From Squalus acanthias (taxonomy: Eukaryota): 64,000 bases of DNA. Shown in pieces: positions 3,350-62,790 of this stretch (positions within the stretch are counted from its first letter, which is position 1; each line of letters begins with the position of its first letter). Below the pieces are notes generated by a model. The model was given only the letters and a program-made list of their open reading frames with translations. It was not told the DNA's origin and made no database searches. The translations under genes and the position numbers were made by a program. The DNA is taken from positions 89,778,001-89,842,000 of the forward strand of contig CM059432.1 of assembly GCA_030390025.1 (NCBI GenBank), read 5' to 3'.

Positions 3350-4942
3350 CAATGAGATGTGTGCCGAGTAAACCTCTTTCCATGTAATCCAAGTTGGTGT
3401 TGGATTCCTCCATGCTCCTTGACATTGAACACAGGCTTTTTGGCAGGCTTCCCAATGCACCAAGCATTTCGTTGTGCATGCCCATCAGCGTTCTTCTGTA
3501 GGCTGCCCCATCGAACTCATCATCTGAGACCTCTGTAGCGGAACCCGTGTGCGATCTCGCCCTCCGGTGAGCTGGCAACTGCGCTATCGTTGCCCCCTGC
3601 CCTGGCTGCAGCGCATCCGTGCCCGGTGTCTCACCACATACCGATCCCGCCTCTAATCTATTCCCTAAGATACGCACAGTGTCAGTATCTAAGCAGGTGG
3701 CTGCGAGCGTGAAATCAAGTGACGGTGCTGTGTCTTCATCATCACTCTCTTCTTGGTATTATCCCACTGCCTGGCCAGATTGCACCTCTTCGATATCTGA
3801 AAGGAGAAAAGCCCAAGGGTAGGGTTATGGTGAGGGGAAGGGGAGAAAGTAAGAGGTGCATGGTTACACCATCTTCAGCTTGTAAATCATAAGAGATTGT
3901 TGGATGATGGGGAAGTGGGATGTGAGAAGGAGGATTAGGTATGAGGATACCGTCATCTTCGATGGTTTCAGCCTGCCGCTGGCAATGGCCTCAACAATGG
4001 ACATTGCGATAATGGTCAGTACTGTCTCCTTCATGGGGGTTAGGACACACAGGTGCACCTGTCCCCCTCCAGTTAGCTCCTGCTGCCTCCAGTTGTGTGC
4101 TCCCTTGCCCTGCAACAAAGGGGGAAGCGTGTCAATGAGTGTTGTGCAATCTGTTTGGGTGACGTGGCTGTCATGGTTGAATAGCTGGCAGTGTGTGCAA
4201 GCTGTGAGATGTGGATGTGAGGCTTGCAGCAGTGCTAAGTGTGTAAGGGTGAGGTGAAGCATGTGAATGTTAGGTATGAGTCCTGATTAATAGAGATTGT
4301 TTGTGGTGAATTGAACAGTGGCTGAGGCTAGTGGTGCAGTTGGTAGCATATGGCATTTGAAGATGCAGTCACTGACCTTGATCACTTGTGTGAGTTCATT
4401 GAACTTCATGCGGCACTGCATCCAATTCCTCGGGCCATGACTCCTGGCATTGACCTCCACGGCTCTCTGCTCCCACTGCCTTTTGACTGTGCATCTGGAG
4501 TGCCTCCTGGCCCCCTGTGGATAAAGGATGTCTCTCCTCCTTTCCACCTCCTCCATCAAGACATCCAGTGCAGTGTCCAAAAACCTTGGAGCCCGTTCTC
4601 TCCCAAGTTGGGCCATTCCTCACTGTTTCCCAGGATAGATTGACTTCCTGCACGACTCCCTGCACCTGCTCCAGCCACAATGTACCTCCCCTTTAAGAGG
4701 TGCAGGCTACCTTTAAGCAGTGCAGACTAGCTTTAAGTGGTGCTAGGAAGTTACGATTTTGGGCCTCGAGCTGATGTGTGCAGCCAATGAACAATACAGT
4801 TAGCGCTGGCTGCAAGCAGAAATCATTATAATGAGCAGGCAGCACAAAGTTAGCATGCTACCTGCATTTCAATCAATGGGCACGGGTTAATCACGCATCA
4901 TGATCCCTGCATCCAGTTTGGGGGACTGTTCAATTTAGCTTC
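3350..4942 (-). mobile_element. Second decayed Harbinger, right half only (Myb gene plus terminus)
   Basis: Exon 1 (4377-4616) is MAQLGRERAPRFLDTALDVLMEEVERRRDILYPQG...WMQCRMKFNELTQVIK|gtcagt. Exon 2 reads KGAHNWRQQELTGGG and exon 3 is truncated near 3350. Introns resemble those of the copy at 682-2410. Confidence 0.82.
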
Positions 4943-24887: not shown

Positions 24888-27132
24888 GGGGGGAATTTTA
24901 ACGTTTTTAAAAAACGGGTGGGTTTAGGTCAGGTGGGAAGTTAAAGTGTTAAAAGTCTGAATCCCAACCAGAACCCGCCTCCAACCCGCCGACTTCCAGT
25001 TTTAACAGAGACGGGACGGAGGCGGGCAGACAGCCTGCTCCCAGGAGGCAGGGTCTGCCATTTAAATATTATAATGAGGCTGCCATACCTCAGATTTAAC
25101 CTCCATTTTAAATTTAACTTTAGCTGGTTGGGTTTTGCAGGCCTCGTAAAACCCGCCAGCGAAAGTAAGGTGAGGACTGCACTTACCTCCTGGATCCAGC
25201 GCCCCTGCCTAACCCACCCTCGCGATCAAAGACACCCCCACGGGGTCCCCAATCCCCCCCAGGTCTCCGATCCCCCCCATGAGGCCTCCCCATCTCCATG
25301 ATCCTCTCGCCCCCGTGCTACTCCTGGCCCCCCGATCACCCCCCGGCCCCCCGATCACCCCCCAGCCCTCCGATCACCCCCTGGCCCCCCAATCACCCCC
25401 CGGCCCCCCGATTACCCCCCGGCCCCCCGATTACCCCCCGGCCCCCCGATCACCCCCCGGCCCCCCGATCACCCCCCGGCCCCCCGATCACCCCCCAGCC
25501 CTCTGATCACCCCCCGGCCCCCCGATCACCCCCTGGCCCCCCGATCACCCCCTGGCCCCCCGATCACCCCCCAGCCCCCCGATCACCCCCCCAGCCCTCT
25601 GATCACCCCCCCGGCCCCCCTATCACCCGCCGGCCCCCCCAATCACCCCCCGGCCCCCCGATCACCCCCCAGCCCTCTGATCATCCCCCGGCCCCCTGAT
25701 CACCCCACGGCCCCCCGATACGCCCCCAGCCCCCCGATCACCCCCCAGTCCCCCGATCACCCCCCAGCCCCCCGATCACCCCACGGCCCCTCGATCACCC
25801 CCCAGCCCTCCGATCACCCCCCGACCCCCCAATCACCCCCCGGCCCCCCTATCACCCCCCAGACCTTCGATCACCCCCCCCCGACCCCCCAATCACCCCC
25901 CAGCCCCCTGATCACCCCACGGCCCCTCGATCACCCCCCCGGCCCCCCGATCACCCTCGGCCCCCCGATCACTCCCCGGCCCCCCAATCACCCCCCAGTC
26001 CCCCGATCACCCCCCAGTCCCCCGATCACCCCACGACCCCTCGATCACCCCACGGCCCCCCGATCACGCCCCGGCCCCCCGATCACCCCTCGGCCCCCCG
26101 ATCACTCCCCGGCCCCCCGATCACCACCTGATCCTCTGATGATCACCCCCCGGCCCTCTGATCACCCCCCCGGCCCCCTGATCACCCCACGGCCCCCCGA
26201 TCAGCCCCCAGCCCTCTGATCACCCCCCGGCCCCCCGATCACCCCCCGGCGCCCCCGATCACCCCACGACCCCTCGATCACCCCCCCCAGCCCCCCAATC
26301 ACCCCACGACCCATCGATCAACCCCCGGCCCTCTGATGATCACCCCCCGGCCCCCCAATCACCCCCCGGCCCCCCCCGATCACCCCACGACCCCTCGATC
26401 ACCCCCCCCCCCGGCCCCCCAATCACCCCACGACCCCTCGATCAACCCCCGGCCCTCTGATGATCACCCCACGGCCCCCCGATCACCCCCCGGCCCCCCC
26501 GATCACCCCACGACCCCTCGATCACCCCCCCCCCCGGCCCCCCATCACTCCACGACCCCTCAATCACCCCCCGGCCCTCTGATGATCACCCCCAGGCCTT
26601 CCATGCGATCCTCCGGCACTCTAATGGGCACCCGCCCCGCTCCTCTAGCCCCTGATCAGCTGCTCCCTGCCCTTTGATGATTAACACCCCCCCCCCACCC
26701 CATCCCCCACACTCCTCTGGCCCTCCAATCATTGCCGAACCCCATTCCTCCAGCCCTCCGATCGCTGCTGACCCCACCCTGCTGGACCTCTGGCCCCCGA
26801 TTGTCTTGCTCCAGCCCCAATTGTTCCAGACACCCCCCACCCCCCAGCTCCTCCGGCCCTCTCCGTGCTCCTCTGGACATCCCCCGGTCCACACGTGATC
26901 TCTTCCTCCTTCCTCTGTGTGGCCTAGTGCCACAGGCCTACCCGCCTGCAGCGAGCCAGCCTCTCAATCTGGCTGGCTCTGGGTGGGAAACAGAGGTTTC
27001 CCATGCAGATCAGGCCCTGTCGTTAAATTTGGCAGGTCCCGCGACAAACCCGTTCTCCCGGGATTTCCGATCACTTCGGAGCCGCCCCCGCTCCCCATGC
27101 TCCCAATCCGCCGCCTCATTAAAATTCAGGCC
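24888..27132. mobile_element. Harbinger-type MITE inflated by an internal minisatellite
   Basis: TIRs GGGGGGAATTTTAA / TTAAAATTCAGGCC with perfect TAA TSD (24885-24887 and 27133-27135). Confidence 0.85.
25245..26600 (+). repeat. C-rich ~19-20 bp minisatellite, consensus CCCCCCGATCACCCCCCGG
   Basis: Dozens of tandem units with variable C-run lengths. Explains the Pro-rich ORFs in the track. Confidence 0.97.
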
Positions 27133-27162
27133 TAAGCGTGCAGATCCCCTCTCAAACAGGTT

Positions 27163-28015
27163 GGGGGGGAATTTTAACCCCCAAGAATGGGTGGGTTGGT
27201 GTCAGGTGGGAAGTATAAATTTAAAAAATCTCAAACCCGACCCCAACCCACTTCCAACCCATCTACTTCCGGTTTTACCGGAGGCGGGAAGGGTGGGCGG
27301 GCGACCAACCCGCTCTCAGGAGGTGCGTCGGTCACTGAAATCTTTTAAGAAGGCTGCATGCCTCCATTTTAGCAGGATATTTATTTTTAACTCATGGAGA
27401 CTGGGTTTCCCGGGGCTCGGGAATCCTGGCAGGTAAAAGGAGGCGAAAAGGGCCGGATCCATGAGGTAAGTGCATTTACAGCACTGCTTACGGGCCAGGA
27501 AGAGCAGGAGTGTTTTCTCCATGCCAAAGAAGCTAACCTCTTTACAGACCCCATGATCGGACCCCGCGATCTCCGACTTCCCCACCCCACCCCCCACTAT
27601 CTCAGCGTGCTCACCCCCCAATCTCCGACTCCCCCCACCCCCTATCTCTGACTCCCCCTACCCCCAATCTCTGACTCTCTTCACCATCCCCCCACCCCCC
27701 GATCTCTGACTGGTCCCACTAACCCCCATCTCTGACTCCCCATCTCCCCTCTCAATCTCCGAGTGCTCACTGCCCCCACCCGCTCCCGATCTCCGACTCA
27801 CCCCTCAACCCCCCTCCCCCATCTCCTACTTACCTGGCATCCGCTCCTCGGCTGCTTTCCCAGCCAATCAGGTTGGCCGCCGGGCGGGAAACCTGTTGAG
27901 AAATTTAAAAGACGTCCTGCAGTTAATTGCAGTAGGACGTCCGGGAAACCCATACTTCCAGAAATCCTCCTCCCCGCCGCCGCTCCCTTCACGGCCCTCA
28001 GTAAATATCGGGGCC
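27163..28015. mobile_element. Harbinger-type MITE, same superfamily as 24888-27132
   Basis: Starts GGGGGGGAATTTTAA and its first ~250 bp parallel the previous element. Short internal CCCCCAATCTCTGACT repeats; ends TAAATATCGGGGCC. TSD unclear. Confidence 0.75.
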
Positions 28016-34065: not shown

Positions 34066-34730
34066 TAAGAAAGAAATTCCACATAAAGTTTTCTACTTTT
34101 AGAAACTTCTGGTTATTCATCTTGTGATTACATTGGAAAGAATCCACAACAATACAAACTGTACACAACCTGTTAGACAAGTAGTCTTAATGAACACAAA
34201 GGGCTGGATTTTCATAGGGCCGTTGAGGCGGGATTGGAGGCGTGTGGGGGGTTAAAATTGCAGAAACTGGCGGGTGGGCCCGATCCCGCCTCCATCCCGC
34301 CTCCACGCAATTTTGATGAAATCGTGTCTGCTGGTCCCGTCTCCGTCCCGCCTCCAAGAGGCGGGAGAGGCCATTAATGCCCTTAACAAGCCCTAAATTG
34401 GCTCTGTAATGCAATTTTGATAGTTTTTAGCTAGTTTAACCCTTTTCCCACGTGAAGCACGCCTGATCTGAAACACACCAGTGAAACCTGGCGGGAGCAC
34501 AAGTGGATTGCTGACTCTCAGCTGCAGCTCAACCATTAAATAGGAGATTTGATCAGCCATCATTTGCAGGTGGCAGGACTTTGTTGTCACAGGTCTGGGG
34601 GAACTTTTAGAAGGCATAACCACAGCTCTGGAAGTTTGGAGCCTGACACCCATCTCCAGAGTGACCTCCTGGGAAACCCCTCTCGCCACCCTCATTGAGC
34701 GCTTCCTCAACTGAGGCATATACCAGAGGC

Positions 34731-35987
34731 ATGGGAGCCATTTATTTCCTTCCCTCCTGGGCATCAGATGAGGACGAACACCAGCCGCGGCACCAGCAGA
34801 ACCATGAACAACAGCAGCACCAACAGCAGCAGCAACAGCAGGAGCGCCAAGCTGCTGCTCACCCACCTGAAGCTGCACAGGCCAAAAGGTGCCAGCGCAT
34901 GGAAGGCCGTCAGCGCAGGAGATACCCCCCAAACAGGGTCTACAGACACAGGGTCAGCTACCTCAACATGTCTGAGCAGCAGTGCCAAAGGCGGCTCCGA
35001 CTTTCGCGAGAGGTAGTGGGTGACATCTGTGCAATGCTGCAACAAGACCTGGAGCCCAGAGGACCAGGTGGACACCCCTTACCAGTGGCCCTCAAAGTCA
35101 CCACCGCACTCAACTTTTTTGCCTCAGGCTCATTCCAGGGATCAGCAGCAGACATCAGTGGCATCTCCCAGGCGGCCGCACACACCTGCATCACGCAGGT
35201 AACCGATGCCCTCTTTACCATCGCGCACAATCACATCCATTTCACCAAGGATCGAGCAAGTGTCACGGCGCGTGCGGTTGGATTAGCTAATTTGGCAGGC
35301 TTTCCAAGGGTGCAGGGCGGCGTTGACTGCACACATGTGGCCCTTAAGGCACCCCATCGCAATCCAGGTATTTTTGTCAACCGCAAGGGCTTCCACTCCC
35401 TCAACGTTCAGCTGGTGTGTGACCACAAGAAGGAAGTTCTGCATGTTTGTGCCAAGTACCCTGGCAGTTGCCATGACTCCTTCATACTGCGCCAGTCTAG
35501 TGTGCCTCCGCTATTCAGTCCGCCAGACCAACTTCACAGATGGCTACTTGGAGACAAGGGCTATCCCCTGAAGACGTGGCTAATGACGCCGTTGAGGAGC
35601 CCATCCAACGCAGCTGAGGAGAGCTACAACTCCAGCCACATTTTCACCAGAGCCATAATCGAGCAAACCATCGGTATGCTGAAGATGCGCTTCAGATGCC
35701 TGGATAGATCAGGTGGAGCCCTGCAATACTCAGCAGCCAGGGTCTCCAGAATCGTCGTGGTTTGCTGTACACTTCACAACATGGCACAGTGTCGTGGCTT
35801 GCAGATGCCGGAGGACCAAGTGGCTCCTCACATAGCCTCCTCAGATGAGGAGGAGGAGGAGGTGGAGGAGGAGGAGGAGAGAGAGAACGAACAACTTGCA
35901 GAGGCCCATCAACCAGCGGCAGCATTACGCGAGACCATAGCTGCCCAGAATGCAAGCAACGCACTCACCTTGGCCAGATTTGCTTAG
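34731..35987 (+). CDS. Harbinger (HARBI1-family) DDE transposase, 418 aa from first ATG, uninterrupted
   Basis: Motifs [18 protein letters not shown] (D), [33 protein letters not shown] (D), RAIIEQTIG (E), FRCLD and CCTLHN. N-terminal poly-Q and C-terminal poly-E. Confidence 0.93.
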
Positions 35988-36243
35988 CCTAGACAATCAA
36001 GCACTTTTGCCTCGCAGCTTCTTACCAGAGCTACGACAATGGCCAAGAACCAACGGATCCCTAACAATTTGACCACCATACTGACAATTGCAAGTTATCC
36101 TAAGGCCTCATTGTGGAAGTCCCATTAGCGAAATGACAGACGCCACAACTGCAGCTGTAGCCATCAGAGTTTTTATTTACACTTAACACCTGATGGCTTT
36201 TTTACATTAACATCAAATTTCACCCAAGTGACTACCCTTGTGA

Positions 36244-38167
36244 CTATTTGTGCAGTATCTTTCTCTTACGCGTGCTCCTACGTGGTGCTTCCCCTGTGGC
36301 TTCAGCAGAGGTGGAGGCCCCCTGCTCAGTTTGTTGCTGCTCCTGTCTCGATACCTTTGGTGGGCGTCCTCTGGGGTTGCGAACCTGCGAGGGCTCGGCA
36401 ACAGTCTGCTGCTCCTACGGCTGGGCAGGGGTTGAGACGCCGATCTCAGTTGGGTGCGGACTCTGGTGGGGCTCTGACCGAGGACTTGTCAGTGGCATGG
36501 AAGTGTGAGCGCTTGGAGAGGAGCCCCCACCTCCTTGTTGTCTGCCACCAACATCCCTCTCATGGGCCAGGTCCACCTCAGCGCTTGGAAGTGGATTGAG
36601 AGCACCTTGCTGCACATCAGGGGGGCCATGGGGACCCGTATCTGCACTGGAAGTCCTACTCAGAAGGACTCCATGAAGGTCTGGTTTCTCTGTTCAATAG
36701 ATGTCCATCGCTCCTCCAGAGATGTCATTCTATTCAGAACACTCACCATGTTTTCTGCACTCTGGCGACTTATCACCTCCATGGAGGTTGCCATCCTTTC
36801 CATGGTGATGCGTTCATGCGCCAATGACTCCACAAAGGCTCTGCTCATGTTCGCTATGGACTCCTCCATTCGCTCCACACTCGCAGCGACCCTGGAGACA
36901 AAACCTGTCAGAGACTCCTGCATCTGTTCCTGGAGTTCCAGCAGCGCTGATCTTATGGATGGCCCCAAAGGCAGAGGGTCGACATGCAGCTGAGCCGAGC
37001 TAGGAGAGTCCTGCGCCCTCCGACTAGGACTCTCCACTGCTGTCCCTGTCTCCACCATCTGCTGATGCTCACTTGTGAGCTTTGATACACCAGGTGACAA
37101 CACTACTCTATGTCCCGAGGGTCCCACCGAGGTGTGAGTCTCTGCGCTGGTGCTGGGTGCGCTGAATTCTGCTGACGCTGCGCCCTCAGAGGTTGCAGCT
37201 TCCTCTGAGGAATCTGGATGCTCAGGCTCTTCCTCCTGGCTAGTGGGGATGGGTGCTTGCGATAGTCCTGTGGGGGAGTAAAGGAAAGAGTCAGAGATGT
37301 GATGCCAAGGTTGCATGCACATTACATATTGCAGATGATCATAAATCCATCTGTCAGAGCTTCAGATTCATTATCAGCGACTCATGCAATTTCAATGAGA
37401 GAGATGGAAAACTATTCTGTCACCAGCTTGCTGTGATGCACCCGTCTGTCCGTCCCCCACTTGCCTATCCTCCTCTACTCCCACGATCTCCAGGACCGCA
37501 TCCTCCCAATGGGTGAGCTGGGCTAATGAAGGTGGCCCTCCTCCTGTCCTGGCTCTTTCCCTTTTATTGTGAGCTATCTTTTCCTGCAATGAGGGAGACA
37601 AGTGGAGTTTGAGTGAGATTTAAAGGAGTGAGTGTAGAGAGTCCATAGCATAGATGTTTAGAAGGAGACAAAGATGGAGTGAGGTGGCGAGACCAAGGGC
37701 CCTCCCTGTGTGTTGTAAGTTGTTTTCATAGCATGACAGTGATAGGGAGTGTGAGGGCTGCATAGTCGAATAGTAAGGTGAATGTAACCATAGAGGGAGA
37801 GGGAATGGGTAAGGGTGCACGGATGTCAGTGTCAATTGGGATATGGAGGAAGAGGTTGCTAAAGCTGTGTGCTGGTGAGGAGAGGCAATGGGGATCAGAT
37901 TGAGGGTGAAGGGAAAGTCATACTCACTTTTGCAGTGCGTAGAAGGTCATGAAACCTATTCCTGCACTAGAACCAGGTTCTGCAGGTGATGGATAAGGAG
38001 TTGACCTCCTGGGCGACCTGGACCCACACAGCCTTGGTCTGCTGGGGAGGCTTATTCCTCCCTGAGGAGGGAAAGAGCACCTCTCTGTTGGCTCTTGCTC
38101 CCTCCACCAAAGCTTGCAGGGCAACGTCATCGAACCTGGGAGCAGACCTGGGTCATTGGCTGGCCAT
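36244..38167 (-). pseudogene. Harbinger A Myb/SANT-like gene (exons 38167-37928, 37583-37424, 37267-36244)
   Basis: Canonical GT-AG junctions (phase 0, then 1). Sequence APRFDDVALQALVE...VWVQVAQEVN...CRNRFHDLLR; C-terminus RGRPPK...RRSTRKRK. Premature stops at 38153-38155, 37967-37969 and 36415-36417, plus a frameshift near 36660. Confidence 0.9.
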
Positions 38168-38529
38168 TCCTCCTGCAGTTGCCTCTAGGATACAGGTCCA
38201 AAAGCTTGGCAGCCTGCAGAAGAAGCAAGGCTTGTTGCAGACCTTAAATGCAGCAGCAATGATGACATCATCGGAGGTGACTTTCAGACTGGAATAACTC
38301 ATTGGCCATGGGTTCCCACACGTTGGAACTCAATTGGCCAATTAAGTTAAAATCACACCATTCATCCACATCGATCTAGATTCGGGTGGGCAACACGAAA
38401 AGCGGGTAACATGACCCCAACCCGCCCCAGTATCAAAATCCAGCCCAATGGGTGGGAAGTGGTCTGTTTCTCTGCTGTTGACTTGATGTGACTCGATGTA
38501 ACTGAATGGCCCATCTGATCACACACTGA

Positions 38530-39895: not shown

Positions 39896-40175
39896 GGGCT
39901 GGATTTTGTCTTGGGGTCGGGTTGGGGTCGTGTAATCCACATTTCGTGTTTCCCCCACCCGACTCCAGATTAATGTGGATGCCTGATGCAATTTTCACTT
40001 AATTGGGCAATTGAGTTGGAGCATGTGGGAACCCATGAACTAATTAGTGTTTTCAGTCTGAAAGTCGCCTCTGATGATGTCATCATTGCTGACTGCCTAG
40101 TCTCAGAGACTGTTGGTGAGAGAGGACCTGCCTGGCTTTTGGTGTGAGTGGACCTGGATGCAAAAATGGGGGGGG

Positions 40176-40212
<37 letters not shown>

Positions 40213-40658
40213 TTTTTTTGCCAATCAAGTCCTCCCAGGCAGTCTCTGAAGACATTCAATGCAGCAGCATCAGAGGCGACGTTCAGACCTAATACTACTA
40301 CCTTCATCACATCTCCGTTGTAATAGTGGACCTGCAGCCGATAGTCAGCTATCCACTTGTGCTCCCGCCAGGTTTCACTGGAGTGTTTCACACCAGGCGT
40401 GCTTCACGTCAGAAGAGGGTTAAACTAGCTACAGCGTTTCAAAATGGCATTACAGAGCCAATTTAGAGCTTGTTAAGGGCTTTAATGGCCTCTCCCGCCT
40501 CTTGAAGGCGGGACGGAGTCGGGAACCCCGCGACTGATTCTGTCAAAATTGCGTGGAGGCGGGATGGAGTCGTGATGGGGTCGGAAACCCCGACTCCGCA
40601 AATTTAACCCCCCACACGCCTCCAAACCCGACTCCATGGGTCATTCAAAATCCAGCCC
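39896..40658 (-). mobile_element. Non-autonomous deletion derivative of the Harbinger A family (763 bp)
   Basis: Perfect TIRs GGGCTGGATTTTG / CAAAATCCAGCCC with perfect GAT TSD. The two arms are colinear with the two ends of 34201-38446 in inverted orientation. Internal (AG)n. Confidence 0.93.
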
Positions 40659-44974: not shown

Positions 44975-47740
44975 TTATGTCAGAATGGGGGCTAAGTACC
45001 TAGTGGGGTACCTCAAGGCTTGGTACTGGGGCCACTACGGTTTCTAATTTACATAAATGACCTGGATTCAGGAATTCTATCCAAAGTGGACAACTTTGCA
45101 GGTGTTCCCAAACTAGGACGCAGTAGAATTAGAAGGAGAAGCTCAGAAATTTCCGAATAAGTTGGACAAAATATGTAAGTGGAAAGAACAACTGCGGATA
45201 AAATTTAATGCAGATAAGTGTAAAGAACTACACATAGGAATGAACAATAGATGACACGCATACTCCACGTATCTTGTTGAAATAGCCAAGTATGAAGGTT
45301 AAAGAGACCTAGGAGTCTTAGTAGACTATTACTAAATATGTCCAACCAATGAAGAGCAGCAATCAACAAAGCTATCATAATGTTGAAGTACATAGTCAAT
45401 AAAGTAGAATATAAGTCAGAGGAGGTAATGGTCAAACTATATAATGCTCTGGTCAGATCAGACCTTCAATACTGCATTCAGTTCTGGTTGCCAAGAAACA
45501 AGAGACAGGTTCAGGCACTAGAGGTAATGCAGAAATGAGCCACAAGGCTGATCCCCACAGTCAGGGGTTTGATTTTTGAGAAAAGACTGGAGAGTCATGT
45601 CTTGCAAAGGGGGTGTCTGAGACATAGGAGGGAATTTTTTGGCGGGGGGGGAGGGGGGTTAGCGGACGCGATCGGTGGTGGGTCAGGTGGGGGGAAAAAA
45701 ATGTTGACAGCAGGTCAGGACCCCACTGTCAACCCGCTGCCACGCGCCTTTACCAAATGTCAGGTCTGTCAATGCTGAGCAGACCCAACACACAGCGGCG
45801 GAGGAGGCAATTCAGGTCATTATGACTTTGTTAATAGACCATTAAGAACTATTTTGAGCTCACCTTAAGAGTTTATCAGGTCACCCACGGGGTCTACGCT
45901 GCTCAGGGATCATGTCAGGTAAGCAGGTTCGGGAGTTGAATGGCCATGGAATCATCTCATTACTTGGCAGCTACAAATGTGCTATAAAAGCTCCCATCTC
46001 ACAGCTGTTCACTTTACAAGCTCAGAAGCTGTTGCTTACTGCATTTGGAAGACAGACTGAGCTTTATGCAGGTTGCAAGTGTTTGGAGTAAACTCTCTAT
46101 CCAGTGTCACCTCATTGGAACAACCTCTCTCACCACTGATAAATCGCTTCTGTCATCTCAAATTCACCTGCCATCTATTACATCAGCATCAGTGCCGTTG
46201 AAACTATCTCACCTTGGTCCTCAGAATCCCACCATGATCAGCCCCAGCACCAGCAGCACCAGGCATACCAGCAGCACCAACAACAACACCAACCTTCTCC
46301 GCCATCAACTGATGCTGCACAGGACAGAGGGCATCAGCACCCGACCACATTGCTGCCAGGGAGGCCAGGGATGGCTTCACCATGGCCAGATTTACTTCAC
46401 TTGACGCTGTACACCCTGCCTGCCACATAATGCACCAGGTTGGCACCACCCCACACCAACACCATAAAGCATCCCTACAATTCCCAAGCCATTCCTTTCA
46501 CACTCATCACCATTGCGGGAGGTACTGTTATGTCTCACCATTCATTGCAACTCACTAAGCCACTTCCAAAGGTGCACACAGATCTGTCCAAGAAAGCAAC
46601 GTGTTCAAAATAAAGGTTTCAATGTTTGACAGCACATTAACAGAAATTTCACATGAACATTGGCTAAAACACACAAGTGCCTACCCTTGTGTGTTGTTAG
46701 TTGATATGATTGGACCAGGATGAGGGTGAATGTGAGGGGTGGCTAGTGAGATGGGGAAGTGACAATGTAGATAGAGAGGGATGGGTGGAGGTGCAAGGTA
46801 AGTTGGTTTGAGTAAGGATGTGCATGAGTAGGGTTGGGAAGGCAGAGTGATGGGGATGTGATGAGTGGCACAGCAGGATGAGATTGAGTGTGGCATTGCA
46901 GTAACGTTTCGTGATCTACTGAGATTATTGAAAGGTTTGCGCCACTGCAGCCTGGTCCTCCTGACGACATCCCTTCTTGTGTCCTCCTGTGCAATGTGCA
47001 ACCAAGCTGAGTTGGTCTCCTGGAGAGGTCTCTTCCGCCCATTGGAAGGGAAGAGAACCTCCCTGTGTGCTGTGACTCCCTCCATAAGCATATGGAGGGA
47101 GTCATGGGAGAGCCTGGGTACAGCCGTGCACCTCTGTGCAGTGCTTGTTGGTGTTTGCAGTACCTCAATGCTGGAGAACACTGACAGCACAACTGTCAAA
47201 GTAAATTTGTGCGTGGTCCATTTAAGGAAACCGGCTGATGACACGTCATCAAATGACGCCATCAGACCTGCTTCCTTCAATTGGCTGGCAAATGCGCTGG
47301 GCGGGCTTAACAAGCCCAATCAGGGGAAAGTCATTTTGGACAGCGGGCTGGAGCCAGCAGCGGGGCCAGGACCCGCCACAGACCCGCTGAGGTTGGTAAA
47401 ATCCAGCCCATAATCTTGTGAAGTTTTACAAAATTATTAAAGATATAGAAAAATTGAACCTGGAATATTACTTTAAATTAAACTGTGGGAGTATAACTAG
47501 GGGCAACAGGTTCAATCTAGTAAAAGATGAGTATTATTCATTAATTCTTCTTCAGACAAAAAGTGAGCAACATGGGGAATAAACTTCGAGAAAGAGTAGG
47601 GAAACAAATACCGGAATCGTGCAAGAAACAATTGGATGTTCCAATGGGGGTGGGGGGGAATGCCTTAGTGTTTCTCTGGATGGATGAATTAAGATGTGTC
47701 AAATGGCCTTTCCCAACTATAATTATCTTGTGATCTTGTG
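44975..47740 (+). mobile_element. Old CR1 LINE 3' portion, split by a Harbinger insertion
   Basis: Decayed RT motifs (SGVPQGLVLGP, IYINDLD, LYNALVR) to 45626, resuming at 47410 (YKIIKDIEK...TRGNRFNLVK) and running to a 3' UTR-like end. Confidence 0.8.
45627..47409. mobile_element. Internally deleted Harbinger (GGGCTGGATTTT-type terminus)
   Basis: Right end AAAATCCAGCCC, left end GGAGGGAATTTT, ATA TSD. Contains a Gln/His-rich transposase N-terminal remnant (+, ~46200-46340) and Myb exon 1 (-, VPRLSHDSLHMLMEGVTAHREVLFP...WRKPFNNLSR). Confidence 0.85.
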
Positions 47741-48640
47741 AACTATGTTCACACAATGACAGTAGGTAGGCATCTCTCTCAATGACTATCACTTAGCCAC
47801 TGACAGTGGGTCTAATAAAAAGTATCTTACAACCCTTGTCAATGACGATACCAGCTACCTTAGATATATGAGCCACTTCAATGATGGTGCACTCTTTGAG
47901 TTCACCCAAGCTTTCCAGTATGGTGCCTCGCTGAATCAAGCAAGTAGACTCGAACACCTAATGTAACAATAAACACGTGAGAGACTCATTACCTCTCCTA
48001 ATTTGTTAATCACTTGCAAATTAGTCCCACATTGAAATATCTGATTTTTACCACCTGCTCACTGCATTAGTGCTGCTTGCCCAAACAAAACAGGTGCTGC
48101 TGGGATTTTATTCTTTGCCCTTTGGGAGTTCCATGCAGTTATTCTGGATTGTTTGGGGCTTTTTGAATATTTGTATCTACACTATTCTTGGTGTATTACT
48201 TCCTGCTGGTGTTTGGTGCTTTTTATTTGCATTAAAATGATTCTTTTTCCCCAGTCCTTTTCCCGCAACAGTCTTGCTGGCAGCTGCTATTTCACTGGCA
48301 GCAAGCAAATTGGGAATTTCTTTGGACATTCCTATAATACTCCTACACTTGGAGAAGGAAGAGGAGTCTCTGTGACAATGGAAAAGCAGGTACAATCGCA
48401 CCCGATATTTTTGGTGCCCACTTGCCCTCATCCCAGGAGCTGAATGATCAGACCTGTGAATGTCCGAAGTGACCTGCTTTTATGGTTTATACTTTATGAG
48501 CAAAGCTGTCGTTGAGTTATGGAGTCTCCTTTATTATGACCTCCAGACAAATGGCTGTGAAGATCACCATAGCATTAAATTTTATGCTACTGGATTCTTC
48601 CAAGCCATCACCAGTGACATTTTCCAGATCAGTCAATCTT

Positions 48641-48815
48641 CACTAAAGCAGATTATTTGGTCATTATCACATGGCTGTTTTGGAACCTTGCTGTGCACAA
48701 ATTGGCTGTGGCATTTCCTACATTACAACAGTGACTACATTTCAAAAATACTTCAGTGGCTGAAAACCGCTTTGGTACATCCTGAGGTCCTGAAAGATCT
48801 TTATTCTTTCTTTCT
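48641..48815 (+). mobile_element. DeuSINE 3' fragment
   Basis: Matches 57128-57320 (CAGATTAT.TGGTCATTATCACAT...ACAGTGACTACA...CTTT tail). Confidence 0.88.
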
Positions 48816-49657
48816 GTACACTGACATATTAAACAAGTGACAGAATCTTTGTTTGCCGTGCAAAACACTTTCATCTCTTTCCCCACAGAAATATGGTAAC
48901 AGCACAAGAGGGCAGAGCATTTTTACCAGGCTAGTACCAAAATTACAGAGCTTCATTGATGGTCATCTGGACCCCTAACAGCAAAAGGTTTCCATTCTAT
49001 TTGTGTGCAGCTGGTTTCACATCGCAAGAACCAAATGATACAATTCAATGCACAATACCCTGGCAGTAGCCATGATGTTCTAATTTTGTATCATTCCATC
49101 ATTATTTGAAGGAACAGGTAGATTGGACCAAACGCTGCTAAGGGACTAAGGGGTAAAAATTCACTTGGTTGCGCCTCCCGTTAGCGCCTTAAGAGGGCGC
49201 TAATGGGGTGTTAAGCCGCTAACGCCCGGGCGCAGTGATGTTTGCGCCGCTCGAGAACTTAACTTGAGATTGTGCGGCGGCGCTAAAACTTACCGCTGCG
49301 ACCACCTGCGCGCGCAGATTATGACGTCATTCCATGGTGCAACGCCCTTGGAGCGCCCCGGAGCGGAAATTGAGTGGCGCCCCCTGCCTTACCGCCTGGC
49401 GCTTCCAACGACCGGAAGACTGGAACGCTATCAATCGGTGTGGGGCTGGGGGGGGGGCGCTATTTAAAGGGGGCCTCTTCCTGTCTTTTTCTGTGGTCGA
49501 CATTTATGCACCACTCGTTCTGAGAGAGAGAGAGAGATTCGGAGAGAGAGAGAGAGAGACTTCTACATTGACTCAACGCTTTGTGAGGTAGTTTTGCCTA
49601 TTCATCCTAACTTTGTTGCTACTTTAGTTGCTGTACCTCATTACTTTTCTGGCTGCA

Positions 49658-50806
49658 ATGATTGGGGGCGTCGTCCTGCTCCAGCTGAATCGGAGGATAC
49701 AGAGACGCAGACAGAGAGTGGCAATGATGGCCAGACGGAGGAGGGCCATCAGGCGCATGTACAGGAGAGCTTACCCTCCCAGGGTATATCGTGAACAGCT
49801 CTCCTACATCCATATGTCCGAGGAGCTGTGTTTGCGAAGGCTGCGATTCAGCAAGGAGGTGGTCACTGAGCTCTGCCACCTGCTGCAGCCAGATCTGCAG
49901 CCTCAGCTGAGGTCCAGGACGTCTCTGTCGGTGGCAGTGAAGGTCACAGTGGCTTTGAACTTCTACGCCACTGGCTCATTCCAAGCTGCTGTTGGGGACC
50001 TCGCCAATATCTCCCAGTTTGCGGTGCATCGCTGCATCCGGCAGGTCACCAATGCCCTCTTCAATAGGAGACGAGACTTCATCTCTTTCCCTATGACCCC
50101 AGACAAGCAGCGTGACCGTGCTCTGGGCTTTGCGAGGGTAGCGGGCTTCCCCATGGTGCAGGGCGCCATTGACTGCACGCATGTGGCTTTGCGTGCTCCG
50201 CGAGAGAATGCAGAGGAATTCCGGAACAGAAAGGGGTTCCATTCCTTGAATGTGCAGTTGGTCTGTGACCACAGACAGGTGATACTCGCTGTCAATGCCC
50301 ACTATCCGGGCAGCTGCCATGATGCTTTCATCCTGCGCCAGACTACTGTGGCAGAAGTTTTCGAGGCACCGCATCAGCCAGTTGGTTGGCTTCTGGGGGA
50401 CAAGGGGTACGCATTGAGCACCTGGCTGATGACACCGCTCCGTACGCCAAACACCCCTGCTGAGCTGCGGTACAATGAAAGCCATCAAGCAACCAGGAAC
50501 ATTATTGAGCGCACAATCGGCGTGCTGAAACAACGGTTCCGCTGTCTGGACCATTCCGGAGGAGCCCTGCAGTACTCGCCTGAGCAAGTTTCGAACTTCG
50601 TAGTCGTGTGCTGCATGTTGCACAACATGGCAATCCTCAGGACCCAGCCAATGCCACCAGGCCTTGTAGCACCACCAGAGGAGGAGGAGGAAGAGGAGGC
50701 AGAGGACGAGGACGATGATCATCAGCAGCACCAAGGCAGGAGGGCGGCCCACAATGGTCAAACTGCAAGGGCCGTCCGTCAACGACTAATAGCAAGCCGC
50801 TTCTAG
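49658..50806 (+). CDS. Harbinger (HARBI1-family) DDE transposase, 382 aa from first ATG, uninterrupted
   Basis: Motifs GAIDCTHV (D), [31 protein letters not shown] (D), RNIIERTIG (E), KQRFRCLD and CCMLHN. TATTTAAA element at ~49461 upstream. Confidence 0.95.
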   Translation: MIGGVVLLQLNRRIQRRRQRVAMMARRRRAIRRMYRRAYPPRVYREQLSYIHMSEELCLRRLRFSKEVVTELCHLLQPDLQPQLRSRTSLSVAVKVTVALNFYATGSFQAAVGDLANISQFAVHRCIRQVTNALFNRRRDFISFPMTPDKQRDRALGFARVAGFPMVQGAIDCTHVALRAPRENAEEFRNRKGFHSLNVQLVCDHRQVILAVNAHYPGSCHDAFILRQTTVAEVFEAPHQPVGWLLGDKGYALSTWLMTPLRTPNTPAELRYNESHQATRNIIERTIGVLKQRFRCLDHSGGALQYSPEQVSNFVVVCCMLHNMAILRTQPMPPGLVAPPEEEEEEEAEDEDDDHQQHQGRRAAHNGQTARAVRQRLIASRF

Positions 50807-51100
50807 GGCCCCTGCCATTGCTACAAACAGTAATCAACCCAGCACGCAACCCCTAAGCCGGCCAAAGCACCAATAATTCCAACCACCAGCCATGTATATT
50901 TTGAATACAGAAACTTATTTATTTTACAAACTCTGTGTGTGTCAATTCCTCATGACAAACTCATAGAAATAAACACAAAAAAACAGTCAATAACATAACT
51001 GGTTCTCACAACCTGGAGATAATGTCCAAAACACTAAACAAAAGTTGGACCATGAACCTCGGCCTTTAATAAAAAAATGACCAGCATTTTGTCACACCTC

Positions 51101-52923
51101 CTACTTTTTGCCCTTCGAGGGTGATCTCCTTCCCTTGCGCACTTCCCCCCTTCTAACCCTACTGCTCCTCCGTAATGGGACCTCAGTGGCTGCAGCAAGG
51201 CTGGTGGAAGGCTGCTGCTCGTCAGACCCTGACACTGCAGATGCCCCTGAAGGACGGCCTCGACCACTTCTGGGCCTGGAGGGCCCGGCTGCAGACTGCA
51301 CCAACTCTGCATGGGCGGCAGCAGTCTGTCCTACAGGCGGTGGCAAGTGCAGTGGAGAAGTGACAGTGTTGGCAGCAGGAATGCTGTCATCGTGCGAGAG
51401 GACAGCAACTCCCTGCTCGCCCGACACACTGGCACTCCCACGGGGCAGCACTTCAGCATCCGGAGCAATCTGCCGGAGAACAGATTGCTGGCCTGCTGCG
51501 GCGCGGTGACAGCCCCGGGGACATGTGCACGAACCATCGAGTTTGGCAGCAGTCTGTGCTCGCGTGGCCTCCATCTGAGTCTGTATGAGAGCAGTCAGAG
51601 GTGGGATCACGGCAGCCAGTGACTGAATTGCAGCACTAAGCGTTAGTGTGGCATCCGCCTGTGCTACAGCGAAGTGCTCCACACTCCTTGCCAGTGACTC
51701 AATGCATTCGGGCACCCTTCCCACTGCACCCATGAGCTCAGTGTGCATGCACACCGCCTGGGTGTTCATTTCTGCAATCAGCCGCTCCTCCTCTGCCTCC
51801 ATTGCAGTAGGAGTGTCTGGCATACTCTCCCTCTGGGGAGAAGGCCCCCGTTCTTCCCTACCCCCCCCATGGCGTTGCTGCAGCCCGCTGGGTCCTGGAG
51901 CTTCACCATCATCAGCCCCTTCCCCCCTGCTCCCCTCCGGGGAAGGCGTGTTCCCAGTGTGGGCATGGGCTTCCTCGGGAGAGGGTGGCACTGATGCTCT
52001 GGCTTCCTCTTCCTCCTCAGCTGCAGCATCACTCCCAGTGGCAGCTTCAGGGCCCGTCTCCTCAGCTGGTGAATCACCATCTGAAAGCAGGGAGGTACAA
52101 GAGTGGCTTTAGCGTGAGGACAGGGTGGCAGTAAGGGAGGAATAAGTGCAGTGAGTTAGCAAGTTGGATTGAAAGTGTCAAAGGCTGGTATTGTGAGGGA
52201 CAAGTGGAAGGACAGAGGACAAAAAGGTGATGACCTTACCATTGCTGTCCACAACGGGGTCGGCGTCTCCAGTGGCGACGGGACCGATCACCCGGCTTGC
52301 CACAATCCTGTGGACGCGCTCCTCCAGATCACTGAGGGGTTGCAGCTGAAGCCGGCCTCCACCTGTCCGTTGCTGCTGTCTCCTATTATGAGCCAGCTTA
52401 GCCTGCAAGAAAAAGGACAGCATCTGAGTAAATATACAGCCATGGTCTTGCCTGATGTGCCTCCCATAGATGAATAGCCCTTACAATATACAGCCATGGT
52501 CTTGCCTGATGTGCCTCCCATAGGTGAATAGCCCTTACTGTATGCAAAGTGTGGAATGTGTGTGTGTGTTTGATGAAAGGGCCATAGGTGTTGGATGAGT
52601 GTTGTGCATTGGGGTTTTAAGACCCTCTGGCCTTAGAGTGAGGTTGAGATGGAGGGATGGAGAGGTATTGAGAAAAAGCCACTCACCCTGACGACCCGAG
52701 TGAGGTCGTTGAACTTTTTGCGGCATTGAGTATGGGTCCTGGGCACCATGCTCCTGGAGGAGACGCTCTGAGCCACCTCCCTCCACACTCTTCTGAACTC
52801 GCGTGGCAAAGGCCTCCTGCCACTCTCCGGGAACAGCATGCATCATCTGCGCTCCACTGCGTCAACCAGAGCATCCAAGGCCCGCTCGGTGAAGCGATGA
52901 GCGCGTTCTCTCACCCTCTCCAT
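51101..52923 (-). pseudogene. Harbinger B Myb/SANT-like gene (exons 52923-52687, 52402-52240, 52080-51101; 459 aa), single premature TGA
   Basis: GT-AG junctions keep the frame (237+163+980 nt). Protein MERVRERAHRFTERALDALVDAVERR*CMLFP...VWREVAQSV...QCRKKFNDLTR with basic C-terminus containing GRGRP. The only lesion seen is TGA at 52843-52845. Confidence 0.92.
52431..52538 (+). repeat. 54-bp tandem duplication in Myb intron 1
   Basis: Two units starting AATATACAGCCATGGTCTTGCC at 52431 and 52485, differing by 1 nt. Confidence 0.95.
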
Positions 52924-54012
52924 GCTTGGCAGCAAAATGGATTCACAGGTCTCTCCAGACTGAGATTCAAGGCTGCAATGAGCAGGGTGTGGCTGGGGAG
53001 CAAGTGGCCCCCCCCCGCTTTAAGAACTGGCCGGCGCCAGTGTGTCTGTGTTCCCTCGCTAACTGGCAGCAGCTGCACTGCGCTCGCGCACTGAGTTAGT
53101 GCCTCACCCCTTGGCCTTTGCGCCTTAAGACAGGTGTGCAGCGCCTGCTTTAGCGCTCCACTCACCTCCCGGGGCGGTAAAAGTGAAGTTTCCTGTCAGT
53201 GCCGATAATTAGCGGCAGGCGCTAATATTTGCGTCCAGACGATATTTGCGCCCCAAATGGGGCACGACCTAATTTTTACCCCTAAGAGTAGCAATGGCAG
53301 CCTGTCTGCAGACCCTCCTAAAGAAACCCGCAATCAGACTTGGACAGCAGATACAATAAAGCTCATGACTCCACCTGAATTCTTCTGGAATACATTACCT
53401 GCACACTCAAGCCAAGATCTAGGGTTCTGACAAAGTCTCCAAAATCATTTATGTCAGCTGCATATTTCAAAATTTTGTCATTGAGTAAGCAGTATGGAGC
53501 AAAAGGACAATGAGGTGCAGCTACAGCCCTTGGAAGAAGCAGAAGAAGAAAAGGTAGAAATGACTGAATGTGATATATAGGCAGGGAGACACATGCATCA
53601 ATGAGTGATAGACAGGACTTTCACCTAAGTCTGTGGTGCAAATCCTGCATATACAGTCCTAACCTACTGGGCACAATACAGTGACTCTATGCCACCATGC
53701 CCTCTATGACAATCAACTGTAACTAAATTATTATAAATGGCCATTAACCAATTGCACGTTACCTAATATGCCCCTTTTTGAAAGACATCTCAGTACTACA
53801 CTGAAATAAGTGCAACTAGCTTAATTTCTCCAGTAATGGTGTGTGTATGTGATTACTGTTCATTTCCCAGTGCTAACCTTTTGGTGACAGTGTAGTGTGT
53901 GTCTTCTGCTAGCTAATCCAGTGTTGCTTCTAAGTGCTATTTTAGTGTGAGAAGTAGGTTTAGTGACAGCCTGCTGCTCGTCAATGGGGGCCTCATGAGA
54001 TGACTTTGAATT

Positions 54013-55230
54013 TAAGAACATAAGAACATAAGAAATAGGAGCAGGAATAGGCCACTTGGCCCCTCGAGCCTGCTCCACCATTCAATAAGATCATGGCTGA
54101 TCTTGGGCTCAAAACCACTTCCCAGCCCGCTCCCCATAACCCTTCACTCCCTTATCTTGCAAAAATTTGTCTATCTTCACTTTAAATGTATTTAATGACC
54201 CAGACTCCACAGCTCTCTGGGGCAGAGAATTCCACAAATTTACGACCCTCTGAGAGAAGAAGTTCCTCCTCATCTCAGTTCTAAAAGGGCGACCCTTTAT
54301 TCTGAGACTGTGCCCCCGAGTTCTAGATTTCCCCTTGAGGGGAAACATCCTCTCTGCATCTACCCTGTCAAGACCCCTCAGTATTTTATATGTTTCGATA
54401 AGATCACCTCTCATTCTTCTAAATTCCAATGAGTATAGGCCCAGCCTGCTCAACCTTTCCTCATAAGTCAAACCCCTCATCTCTGGAATTAACCTAGTGA
54501 ATCGTCTCTGAACTGCCTCTAATGCAAGTATATCCTTCCTTAAATAAGGAGACCAAAACTGTACGCAGTACTCAAGGTGTGGTCTCACCAATACCTTGTA
54601 CAGTTGTAGCAGGACTTCCCTGCTTTTATACTCCAACCCCCTTGAAATAAAGGCCAACATTCCATTTGCCTTTTTGATTACTTGCTGTACCTGCAGGCTA
54701 ACTTTTTGTGTTTCATGCACAAGGACCCTCAGGTCCCTCTGAACTGTAGCATTTTGTAATCTCTCTCCATTTAAATAATAGTTTGCTTTTTTATTTTTCC
54801 TGCCAAAGTGGATAACCTTGCACTTTCCCACATTATACTCCATCTGCCAAATGTTTGCCCACTCACCTAGCCTGTCTATATCCCTTTGCAGATTCTTGAG
54901 TCCTCTGCACAACTTGCTTTCCCACCCATCTTTGTATCATCCGCAAACTTGGCTACATTACACTCGATCCCTTCATCCAAGTCATTAATGTAGATTGTAA
55001 ATAGTTGGGGCCCCAGCACCGATCCTTGTGGCACCCCACTAGTTACCGTTTGCCAACCAGAAAATGACCCATTTATCCCGACTCTCTGCTTTCTGTTAGT
55101 TAGCCAATTCTCTATCCATGCTAATATATTACCCCCAACTCCATGAGCTCTTATCTTATGCAGTAACCTTTTATGTGGCACCTTATCGAATGCCTTCTTG
55201 AAATCCAAATACACCACATCCACTGGCTCA
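54013..55230 (-). mobile_element. 5'-truncated CR1 LINE (RT C-terminal half, one frameshift)
   Basis: YLDFKKAFDKVPH, GVPQGSVLGP, KFADDTK, RPHLEYCVQFW; frameshift at ~54900; (TTCTTATG)n tail. Confidence 0.96.
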
Positions 55231-57320: not shown

Positions 57321-57644
57321 CTATCAGGAAAGATTGAACAGGCTGGGACACTTTTCTCTGGAAAAGAGAAGACTGAGAGGTAACCTGATAGAGGTGTAAA
57401 GATTATGAAAGGGTTTGATAGGGTAGACAAAGAGAAGATGTTTCTACTTGTGGGGGAGACCAGAACTAGGGGCTATAAATATAAGTTAGTCACTAATAAA
57501 TCCAATAGGGAATTCAAGAGAAACTTCTTTACCCAGAGAGTGGTTAGAATGTGGAACTTGCTACCACAAGGAGAAGTTGAGGTAACCTCCATAGATGCAT
57601 TTAAGGGGAAGCTAGATGAACACATGAGGGAGAAAGGAATAGAA

Positions 57645-59227
57645 GTCCCTGGGTCCTGATGGACTTCATCCTAGGGTCTTAAAAGAAGTGGCTAGTGAGA
57701 TAGTTGATGCGTTGGTTTTAATTTTCCAAAATTCCCTAGATTCGGGGAAGGTTCCATTAGATTGGAAAATAGTGAATGTAACTCCTTTATTCAAAAAGGG
57801 AGGGAGACAGAAAGCAGGAAATTACAGGCCAGTTAGCTTAACATCTGTCATAGGGAAGATGTTGGAAGCTATTATTAAAGACGTTATAGCAGTGCATTTA
57901 GAAAAGTTCAAAGTAATCAGGCAGAGTCAACATGGTTTTGTGCAAGGGAAATCATGTTTAACCAATTTATTGGAGTTCTTTGAGGAAGTAACATGTGCTG
58001 TGGATAAAGTGGAACCGGTGGATGTACTGTACTTAGATTTCCAGAAGGCATTTGATAAGGTGCCACATCAAAGGTTATTGCGGAAAATAAAAGCTCATGG
58101 TGTAGGGGGTAACATATTGGCATGGATAGAAGATTGGCTAGCTAACAGGAAACAGAGAGTAGGCATAAATGGGTCATTTTCTGATTGGCAAGATGTAACA
58201 AGTGGTGTGCCACAGGGATCAGTGCTGGGGCCTCAACTTTTTACAATTTATATAAATGACTTGGATGAAGGGACCGAAGGTATGGTTGCTAAATTTGCTG
58301 ATAACATAAAGATAGGTAGGAAAGTAAATTGTGAAGAGGACATAAGGAGGCTACAAAGGGATATAGATAAGTTAAGTGAGTGGGCAAAGATCTGGCAAAT
58401 GGAGTATAATGTGGGAAAATGTGAAGTTGTCCATTTTGGCAGGAAGAATAAAAAAGAAGCATATTATCTAAATGGTGAGAGATTGCAGAGCTCTGAGATG
58501 CAGAGGGATCTGGGTGTCCTAGTGCATGAATCACAAAAGGTTATTATGCAGGTACAGCAAGTAATTAGGAAAGCTAATAGAATGTTATTGTTTATTGCGA
58601 GGGGAATTGAATACAAAAGTAGGGAGGTTATGCTTCAGTTATACAGGGCATTGGTGAGACCACATCTGGAGTACTGTGTACAGTATTGGTCTCCTTATTT
58701 AAGGAAGGATGTAAATGCATTGGAAGCAGTTCAGAGAAGGTTTACTAGACTAATACCTGGAATGGGCGGGTTGTCTTATGAGGAAAGGTTGGACAGGCTA
58801 GGCTTGTATCCACTGGAGTTTAGAAGAATAAGAGGTGACTTGATTGAAACATATAAGATCCTGAGGGGTCTGGACAGGGTGGATGTGGAGAGGATGTTTC
58901 CTTTTGTGGGAGAATCTAGAACTAGGGGTCACTGTTTAAAAATAAGGGGTCGCCCATTTAAGACAGAGATGAGGAGAAATTTTTTCTCACAGAGGGTCGT
59001 GAGTCTTTGGAACTCTCTTCCTCAGAGGGCGGTGGAAGCAGAGTCTTTGAATATTTTTAAGGCAGCGGTAGATAGATTCTTGGTAAGGAATGGGGTGAAA
59101 AGTTACCGGGGGTAGGCGGGAATGTGGAGTAATCAGATCAGCCGTGATCTTATTGAATGGCGGAGCAGGCTCGAAGGGCCGAATGGCCTACTCCTGCTCC
59201 TAATTCGTATGTTCGTATGTTCGTATG
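57645..59227 (+). mobile_element. Young 5'-truncated CR1 LINE; open RT frame 57688-59115
   Basis: GPDGLHPRVLKE, NYRPVSLTS, QHGF, YLDFQKAFDKV, GVPQGSVLGP, KFADNIK (D>N); (TTCGTATG)n tail; no endonuclease domain. Confidence 0.96.
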
Positions 59228-62118: not shown

Positions 62119-62790
62119 ATGTCTGGTCATGCTTCAGCAGAGCCTGGAACCCTCAAATGTTTACTCCTCGGTAGAGATTTTTCTGTCCAAAATAAGGCAA
62201 ATGAACAGCAGATATTTGGCACTGAGGGAAGGAGGCCAAACAAAGGTGTGTTGCAGGCCCAGTGGAGGAAGGTGGCCTTGACAGTGAATGCCACCTTTAC
62301 CAAACTCTGTGCCAGAAGATGTTCAATGACCTGACCAGGTTAGCCAAGGTAAGAGAAGGCACATATCTCCACCCACTTTACTTTTCTTGTGTTGAATATC
62401 ATCTGCTACTTACCTGAAACGTATAGGAAGTACTGCATCAACCTTCACACCCCTTTCTTTCTCCTGCAAGTATTCCTCACGGGCAGGCTATCATAAAGCG
62501 AAACAGTGACTCACCTGATACCTATTTGCTTGTTTCCAGCACCTGTTGCTTTCTCATACCTGGATTGCATTCCATATGATTGCAAGCAGAAGGTCTTCAC
62601 ATTATGCGCTTTGTTCTTAAAGGAGAAAGAGGCCCACACTCAATGGCTGAAATCTAACACAGCTTGTGAAATGCCCAGCATAGACCTCACACCTCTTACG
62701 AGGAAGAAGCCCTGGAACTCTTGGGCAGACATACAGAAGAAGCAGTGGAAATGGGGAAGTAGGAGCAGAGGTGCCAGCTGCACGTTGGTC
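62119..62790 (+). pseudogene. Decayed Harbinger Myb gene, exons 1-2
   Basis: QIFGTEGRRPNKGVLQAQWRKVALTVNA, then after a frameshift CQKMFNDLTRLAK|gtaaga; downstream SYEEEALELLGRHTEEAV resembles exon 2. Confidence 0.65.

Follow-up and report, generated by a model that had tools for sequence, protein, structure and literature searches.

We examined a 64,000-nucleotide stretch of the Squalus acanthias genome (assembly GCA_030390025.1, contig CM059432.1, forward-strand positions 89,778,001 to 89,842,000; hereafter the window, with positions counted from its first letter). At 49150-53282 it holds a full-length element of 4,133 bp, Harbinger B, which carries an open transposase frame and, convergent with it on the minus strand, a Myb-like gene of three exons and 459 codons with one internal TGA. 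The terminal inverted repeats (TIRs; GGGGTAAAAATT) were perfect over 12 bp, at 49150-49161 on the plus strand and 53271-53282 on the minus strand. The insertion site read C-TAA / TAA-G, with the two copies of the target-site duplication (TSD) at 49147-49149 and 53283-53285. Both subterminal regions were rich in CpG, with an observed/expected ratio of 1.07 at the left end (49162-49500) and 0.68 at the right end (52950-53270, upstream of the Myb gene) versus 0.19 and 0.10 in the flanks. Words of the TTAGCGC type were found at both ends (three left, two right) and are candidate Myb-binding sites, while the left subterminal region is a candidate transposase promoter. The perfect TIRs, the TSD and the CpG-rich ends had been noted in an earlier reading of this DNA (the original prediction) and were all confirmed. 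Such patterns are not rare, as five cases of a 12-bp inverted repeat with a 3-bp duplication within 9 kb occurred in the window versus 0-2 (mean 0.7) in 20 shuffles, and we rejected the TIR/TSD pattern as stand-alone proof of the element.

Public contigs gave a second view of the boundaries. Twenty runs in 11 studies matched part of the window, and four of these (X1, X6, X9 and X15) were compared. The summed depth in X1 rose from 10-13 in the unique flanks to 2e5-1.4e6 inside Harbinger B, with a step at both ends, and three X15 contigs departed from the window sequence exactly at 49150. Contigs carried different flanking sequence outside the element ends, from 49150 (X15) and beyond 53289 (X9), and one further junction in X9 contigs likewise continued TAAG. 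One X1 contig, at single-copy depth, spanned the right junction and continued unbroken. The contig piece at the left junction reached only 20 letters into the element and was not counted as a bridge. No empty-site joint was present among the 15 contig joints shown of 26. The left flank (48460-49097, plus strand) aligned with residues 53-229 of an older, decayed Harbinger transposase, and the right flank (53322-53450, plus strand) continued the same protein over residues 262-304, a weak match with E=2.8e-4 on the two flanks. Both flanks are thus halves of one dead transposase, which makes Harbinger B a nested insertion. The left flank also held an unrelated repeat (48700-48870) that reached a very high depth of 9.5e5 in X1 and occurred in each of the four runs compared.

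The transposase gene (49658-50806, plus strand) is intronless and encodes 382 amino acids, from an ATG at 49658 to a stop codon ending at 50806, with a match to the DDE transposase family PF13359 at E=2.4e-39. In an alignment with 61 relatives (element C of the window and the best 60 of 120 listed database relatives) it retained 102 of the 104 columns conserved at a level of at least 80%, ranking in the best three of 62 rows. The intact transposase of the original prediction was therefore borne out as a reading frame. The acidic residues D172, D222, D248 and E284 were each the commonest residue of their alignment column, and the family motif would indicate which three of them make up the catalytic triad. 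The predicted structure was confident (mean pLDDT 89.7). A Foldseek search with this model returned no match at E 0.001, its weak top rows being mostly DDE transposases and integrases, and a sequence search of the PDB gave only two matches, both at chance level, with no solved structure of a relative.

The best 65 transposase relatives were all from sharks and rays, with a top identity of 66% among the 120 listed. In a tree of 33 chosen rows the protein grouped with sawshark and ray proteins (support 98/98), and relatives from coelacanth, lungfish and caecilian formed a separate clade. The tree also placed some transposases from distant elasmobranchs very close together (sawfish, catshark and zebra shark; white shark and bamboo shark; two rays); domestication, slow evolution or transfer could account for this. 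All relatives are labelled "putative nuclease HARBI1" in the databases, and we infer that transposon copies received this name through automatic annotation. The name is what would favor reading Harbinger B as a pair of domesticated host genes (HARBI1/NAIF1 or MSANTD type), which we find scarcely credible: a domesticated HARBI1/NAIF1-type gene would be a single-copy locus without TIRs or TSD, whereas Harbinger B has both, lies inside another transposon and shows very high repeat depth.

The Myb-like gene was modeled on the minus strand as exon 1 (52687-52923, 79 codons), intron 1 (52403-52686, 284 nt), exon 2 (52240-52402, 163 nt), intron 2 (52081-52239, 159 nt) and exon 3 (51101-52080, 980 nt, open). 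Exon 1 carries a Myb/SANT domain (PF13873, E=4.4e-9 for the translation with X at the stop), and exon 3 ends in a basic tail that, judged by eye, is a candidate import signal. Both predicted introns are bounded by GT..AG. All six of the best Myb relatives were continuous over the exon 1/2 junction and four of the six over the second junction, which falls in a poorly conserved stretch. Full-length relatives (465-554 amino acids) aligned almost end to end, reaching residue 442-456. The canonical splice sites claimed earlier thus stand, with splicing supported by signals and homology and not by transcripts. In X15, whose RNA origin is only guessed, no intron-skipping joint was found among the 15 shown of 26 and the exon 1 contig continued unspliced into intron 1, both uninformative on expression. 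A protein search returned 78 relatives, with a best identity of 60% over the domain and none from the same family as Harbinger B; other database searches for same-family Myb proteins gave one distant match or none, and a scan of JGI metagenomes yielded 178 pattern matches, none of them a relative. Intron 1 also contains a 54-bp tandem duplication (52431-52538, 98% alike), and backward joints in X1 (e.g. 52535 -> 52433) suggest that other copies have more of these units.

These features place Harbinger B in the PIF/Harbinger (PHIS) superfamily, following the feature set of Han et al. 2015 (PMC4482050): a DDE_Tnp_4 open reading frame (ORF), a second Myb/SANT ORF (broken here), a 3-bp TWA duplication (TAA), a TIR shorter than 60 bp starting with A or G (12 bp, GGGG), a length near 4.1 kb (4,133 bp), and interspersed repetition in which the ends run into different flanking sequences. 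An autonomous copy would have both ORFs intact, and Harbinger B does not. Its one insertion site matches the C|TNA|G target of NuwaII, although TAA fits TWA equally, and its TIR starts with GG as in NuwaII but is 12 bp long versus 13-46 bp. NuwaII elements (turtle Harbinger-n_CPB, amphioxus, Xenopus; PMC4482050) share with it the target, the GG-start TIR, two ORFs and a length of 4-5 kb; the turtle members listed there have Myb_DNA-bind_4, and Table S7 of that paper lists no cartilaginous fish member of NuwaII. Transposase blocks were compared by eye with Fig. S3 of the same paper, the transposase tree was built without reference transposases, and we call the element Nuwa-like.

The zebrafish element Harbinger3_DR (NuwaI-2_DRer in Han et al. 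2015, PMC4482050) resembles Harbinger B in its length of about 4.2 kb, its 12-bp TIR and its DDE_Tnp_4 and Myb_DNA-bind_5 genes (Table S5), and the DDE core blocks look alike by eye only (Fig. S3). It differs in its duplication, with CWG in a 15-bp target (PMC3016246, PMC4482050) versus TAA in C-TAA-G, so that Harbinger B lacks the CWG duplication of NuwaI/Harbinger3_DR. It also differs in its Myb protein (221 versus 459 amino acids) and in that its activity has been demonstrated, whereas Harbinger B is known from sequence alone. The original prediction was right that Harbinger3_DR had been reconstructed from a consensus (PMC3016246, PMC2836001), and both of its proteins are required in human cells (as cited in PMC2836001).

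Harbinger B belongs to a very abundant family. In X1, 57,448 contigs were aligned, 11,474 of them at 99% identity or above, 18,855 at 95-99% and 27,119, the largest class, at 90-95%. The median summed depth over 23 element bins was 720,847 versus about 11 in unique flank, a ratio of 63,800, or 2,060 if each base was counted 31 times through overlap; the ratio is not a copy number, and we take it only to indicate that the copies of the family number roughly in the thousands to tens of thousands. Depth along the whole element implies that many copies are full length, and the family holds several subfamilies with mostly full-length copies. High-copy Harbinger expansions have also been described in the coelacanth (LatiHarb1, PMC3787270, put at 9.3%) and newt (PMC5741667). 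Harbinger-Snek of sea kraits (PMC8437027) is likewise a mass expansion of two-gene Harbingers with intact and broken copies. Horizontal transfer was argued for Harbinger-Snek, whereas the Harbinger B transposase sits among chondrichthyan relatives and nothing indicates transfer. We separately set aside horizontal transfer to organisms B-G (shares 0.31-0.45), for which only X6 and X9 were compared. X6 carried 184 letters of unique flank without a difference, and X9 also carried the unrelated flank repeat (48700-48870), as would be expected of trace DNA from this or a closely related species.

Comparison with family members also showed how far this copy departs from them. A total of 141 differences from Harbinger B were listed, of which 40 were shown and 39 of these fell within the element; our site counts rest on those 39. 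At 29 of the 39, most X1 depth carried another letter than Harbinger B, and 11 of these changes alter a residue (4 in the transposase, 7 in Myb). Most of the 29 are subfamily-level differences. Ten of the 39 were near-private to Harbinger B, with the other letter making up at least 97% of the depth in X1 and in X6 alike, and at three of them at most 13 single-copy depths were left for the Harbinger B letter. Two of the ten alter a residue, one at transposase position 136 (a variable column) and one at Myb position 228 (a conservative change in the Myb tail). In X9, 24 of 2,189 letters differed over six long pieces, and in X15, 22 of 1,618 over six (the closest or longest six of eight shown per run, with two more distant or duplicate pieces omitted), so that Harbinger B lies about 1% from the long family contigs. 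The description of this copy as one base from a complete transposon, with the TGA as its only visible lesion, therefore holds for the reading frames, in which there is a single stop in 459 codons, but not for identity with the family, given the 29 of 39 sites.

The premature TGA lies at 52843-52845 (minus strand), codon 27, within the Myb/SANT domain. It had been explained as a CGA>TGA change by comparison with a copy at 4616 that reads ERRR at this place. We rejected that region as a sister copy, since its protein was 46% identical over 76 residues and blastn did not match it to exon 1. Its ERRR is encoded by GAA AGG AGG AGA; the codon in question is AGA, which supports Arg only, and a copy of another family is no evidence for CGA>TGA. 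The route itself is plausible. Arg is the commonest residue at Myb column 27 and no more than that (22 of 76 aligned relatives). An Arg codon does occur at this place in other copies: a 458-letter X15 contig over exon 1 reads AGA at codon 27. Six further differences within 35 bases of the codon mark that contig as another subfamily, and CGA itself is neither shown nor excluded.

The X1 depth around 52834-52845 drops to about a tenth of the element median (to 82,666 at 52845), which is expected if short, more distant contigs miss the 90% cut. At 52845, only 1.6% of this depth, from the contigs nearest Harbinger B, reads T (equivalent to AGA), while the remaining 98% reads TGA or CGA. Together with the lack of an A>G row among the 40 differences shown, this would suit a reading in which the TGA marks a Myb-null subfamily amplified in trans by the Myb of other copies, the stop being older than the insertion and common to hundreds of copies. 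One-ORF, non-autonomous Harbingers are known; in L. colubrina, 2,263 copies have kept the transposase only (PMC8437027). We nevertheless consider such a subfamily unlikely. Every row shown in the difference table reaches 100% in some run (X15, X9 or X1), so that an A>G row at 90-98% would not appear there, and 12 of the 18 X1 A>G places are indeed not among the rows shown. A CpG transition is moreover the commonest single change, and other changes of CpG type are present in Harbinger B. A CGA lost by CpG decay in Harbinger B is thus likelier than a stop shared by its subfamily.

Alternatively, the stop could be an assembly or sequencing error in an intact copy. The window letter at 50065 has zero depth in X1, so that some window letters are unconfirmed by that run, but the letter at 52633 is present there at single-copy depth (7.1), and the flanks match X1 with one difference in 437 letters and with two and a gap in 548. 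Stops are also expected at such divergence, with 0.8 nonsense changes per copy at 1%, and neighboring Harbingers likewise carry stops in Myb exon 1. We regard an error at this codon as very improbable.

Rare non-CpG differences among the shown rows numbered 3-7, or 0.07-0.17%. At the mutation rate of the epaulette shark (7e-10 per base per generation, PMC10587355), which may not apply here, these correspond to an insertion age of about 1-2.4 million generations, or 0.5-12 million over the published interval, with the caveat that X1 shows no depth for one of three rare letters, which could be an error or an individual allele. On a shark repeat landscape the insertion counts as young but not fresh, having acquired substitutions of its own. 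It is improbable, in our judgment, that the family is transposing now and that Harbinger B is a very recent, possibly polymorphic insertion with the stop as its only change. The perfect ends, CpG-rich termini, a transposase among the least degraded of 62 and the 11,474 contigs at 99% or above would all agree with ongoing transposition; the rare differences already accumulated, a largest contig class only 90-95% alike and the unbroken X1 contig over the right junction speak against it.

Under uniform substitution, copies with both genes free of stops would make up 67% at a divergence of 0.5%, 45% at 1% and 21% at 2%; these are upper figures in which indels and the CpG excess are ignored. About one third of copies at 1% divergence would have one nonsense codon and be otherwise whole. 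Intact sister copies likely exist, and Harbinger B is then unremarkable as starting material. The proposal of a recently active family with possible live copies accordingly holds in part: the family is young and of high copy number and its intact copies are probable, given the 11,474 close contigs and the Arg codon in X15, but Harbinger B itself is broken. Its standing as a special candidate for resurrection, or as the first of its kind, was not upheld, as it is one of thousands, has substitutions of its own, and intact vertebrate Harbingers are in print, including 269 in Laticauda colubrina (PMC8437027) and two-ORF families of turtle and fish (PMC4482050, supplement 1).

We consider it probable that Harbinger B is a full-length insertion of a very high-copy PIF/Harbinger family of a cartilaginous fish, that it landed at a C-TAA-G site inside a dead Harbinger of greater age, and that a later nonsense codon in its Myb gene made it non-autonomous. 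The best reading is that of a non-autonomous, Myb-null copy from a geologically young PIF/Harbinger expansion with a Nuwa-like C|TAA|G target. Several points weigh against it. The letter that its own subfamily carries at 52845 is hidden, as the 98% of X1 depth that is not T may be stop or CGA. The estimates of copy number and age are rough. The age argument is weakened by the unseen letter at 50065, since some apparently private letters may then be individual alleles or mistakes of the assembly. Finally, with only two of the ten near-private changes altering a residue, the stop as the sole disabling lesion is not contradicted.

By analogy with Harbinger3_DR and Ping/Pong (PMC2836001), the spliced Myb/SANT protein of an intact copy would bind the element ends, and would also bind the DDE transposase and carry it into the nucleus, where the transposase would excise the element and reinsert it at a TNA site with a 3-bp duplication. 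In Harbinger B the Myb frame is cut short at 26 residues, with 156 nt still to go to the first exon junction, and its message would be expected to decay or at best to give a product restarted at Met29 without the first helix. As its sequence reads, the copy is unable to make a whole Myb domain and would be mobile only in trans. The ends and the transposase look sound, and the copy could be mobilized, or lend its transposase, if another copy supplied Myb.

Harbinger B is ordinary in kind, a broken copy of the known two-gene Harbinger type, and still-working sisters, if any, would matter more. The single copy matters little and its family somewhat more: thousands to tens of thousands of copies, mostly full length, would take up a notable share of a shark genome. 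A 2022 survey reported no Harbingers in elephant shark and called for study of other cartilaginous fishes (PMC9179366). In a 2025 reef shark genome, Tourist/Harbinger elements were the commonest DNA transposons, in a genome where DNA transposons made up only 1.58% (PMC12498223). Our literature search, with Repbase and Dfam outside its scope, returned no description of the Harbinger B family or of an elasmobranch Harbinger expansion. The "putative nuclease HARBI1" models of sawshark, rays and other chondrichthyans are the closest relatives, at no more than 66% identity; none is of the same family, and they are automatic models and not described elements. It is possible, though we hold it doubtful, that the family is among the largest full-length two-gene Harbinger expansions in vertebrates (with copies numbering up to tens of thousands and making up some percent of the genome), undescribed in elasmobranchs, and that native intact copies still transpose, which would provide a two-component transposon with a short CTNAG-type target and no need for reconstruction. 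A spontaneous PIF/Harbinger insertion has been reported in a nematode (bioRxiv 10.64898/2026.05.26.728016). If native intact copies moved in cultured cells, the plant Pong system for targeted integration (PMC11254759) would gain a counterpart from vertebrates. Our searches returned no solved structure for any relative, so that an active pair that folds well would be of structural interest too.

At least seven Harbinger-derived pieces lie in the window. One of them, at 34201-38447, is also a full-length Harbinger but belongs to a different family, with a TIR starting GGGCTGGATTTT and flanking triplets that do not match as a duplication. Its transposase frame (34665-35987) is open, with 58% amino acid identity to that of Harbinger B, and an in-frame stop interrupts its Myb exon 1. 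The two full-length Harbingers of the window therefore each combine an open transposase with a broken Myb gene, which with n=2 may be chance. A 763-bp element at 39896-40658 has a GAT duplication and a 13-bp TIR of the type found in the 34.2-38.4 kb element, and is likely a MITE of the latter's family. Two tandem Myb-side Harbinger remnants at 1-4900 were 71% alike over 1.1 kb; the first, preceded by a transposase 3' end, is the closest relative of Harbinger B in the window (67-73% in patches). More decayed Myb/SANT exons were observed at 46684-47319 and 62212-62354.

Outside the Harbinger-derived pieces, two reverse transcriptase stretches, which we take to be CR1-like, were found in opposite orientation at 57643-59115 and 54013-55229. 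They were 79% alike, the first being open over 490 codons. A C-rich tandem repeat at 25283-27436 reads as proline-rich open frames and, with inverted arms at 24888-25091 and 27164-27364, is probably a minisatellite inside a repeat.

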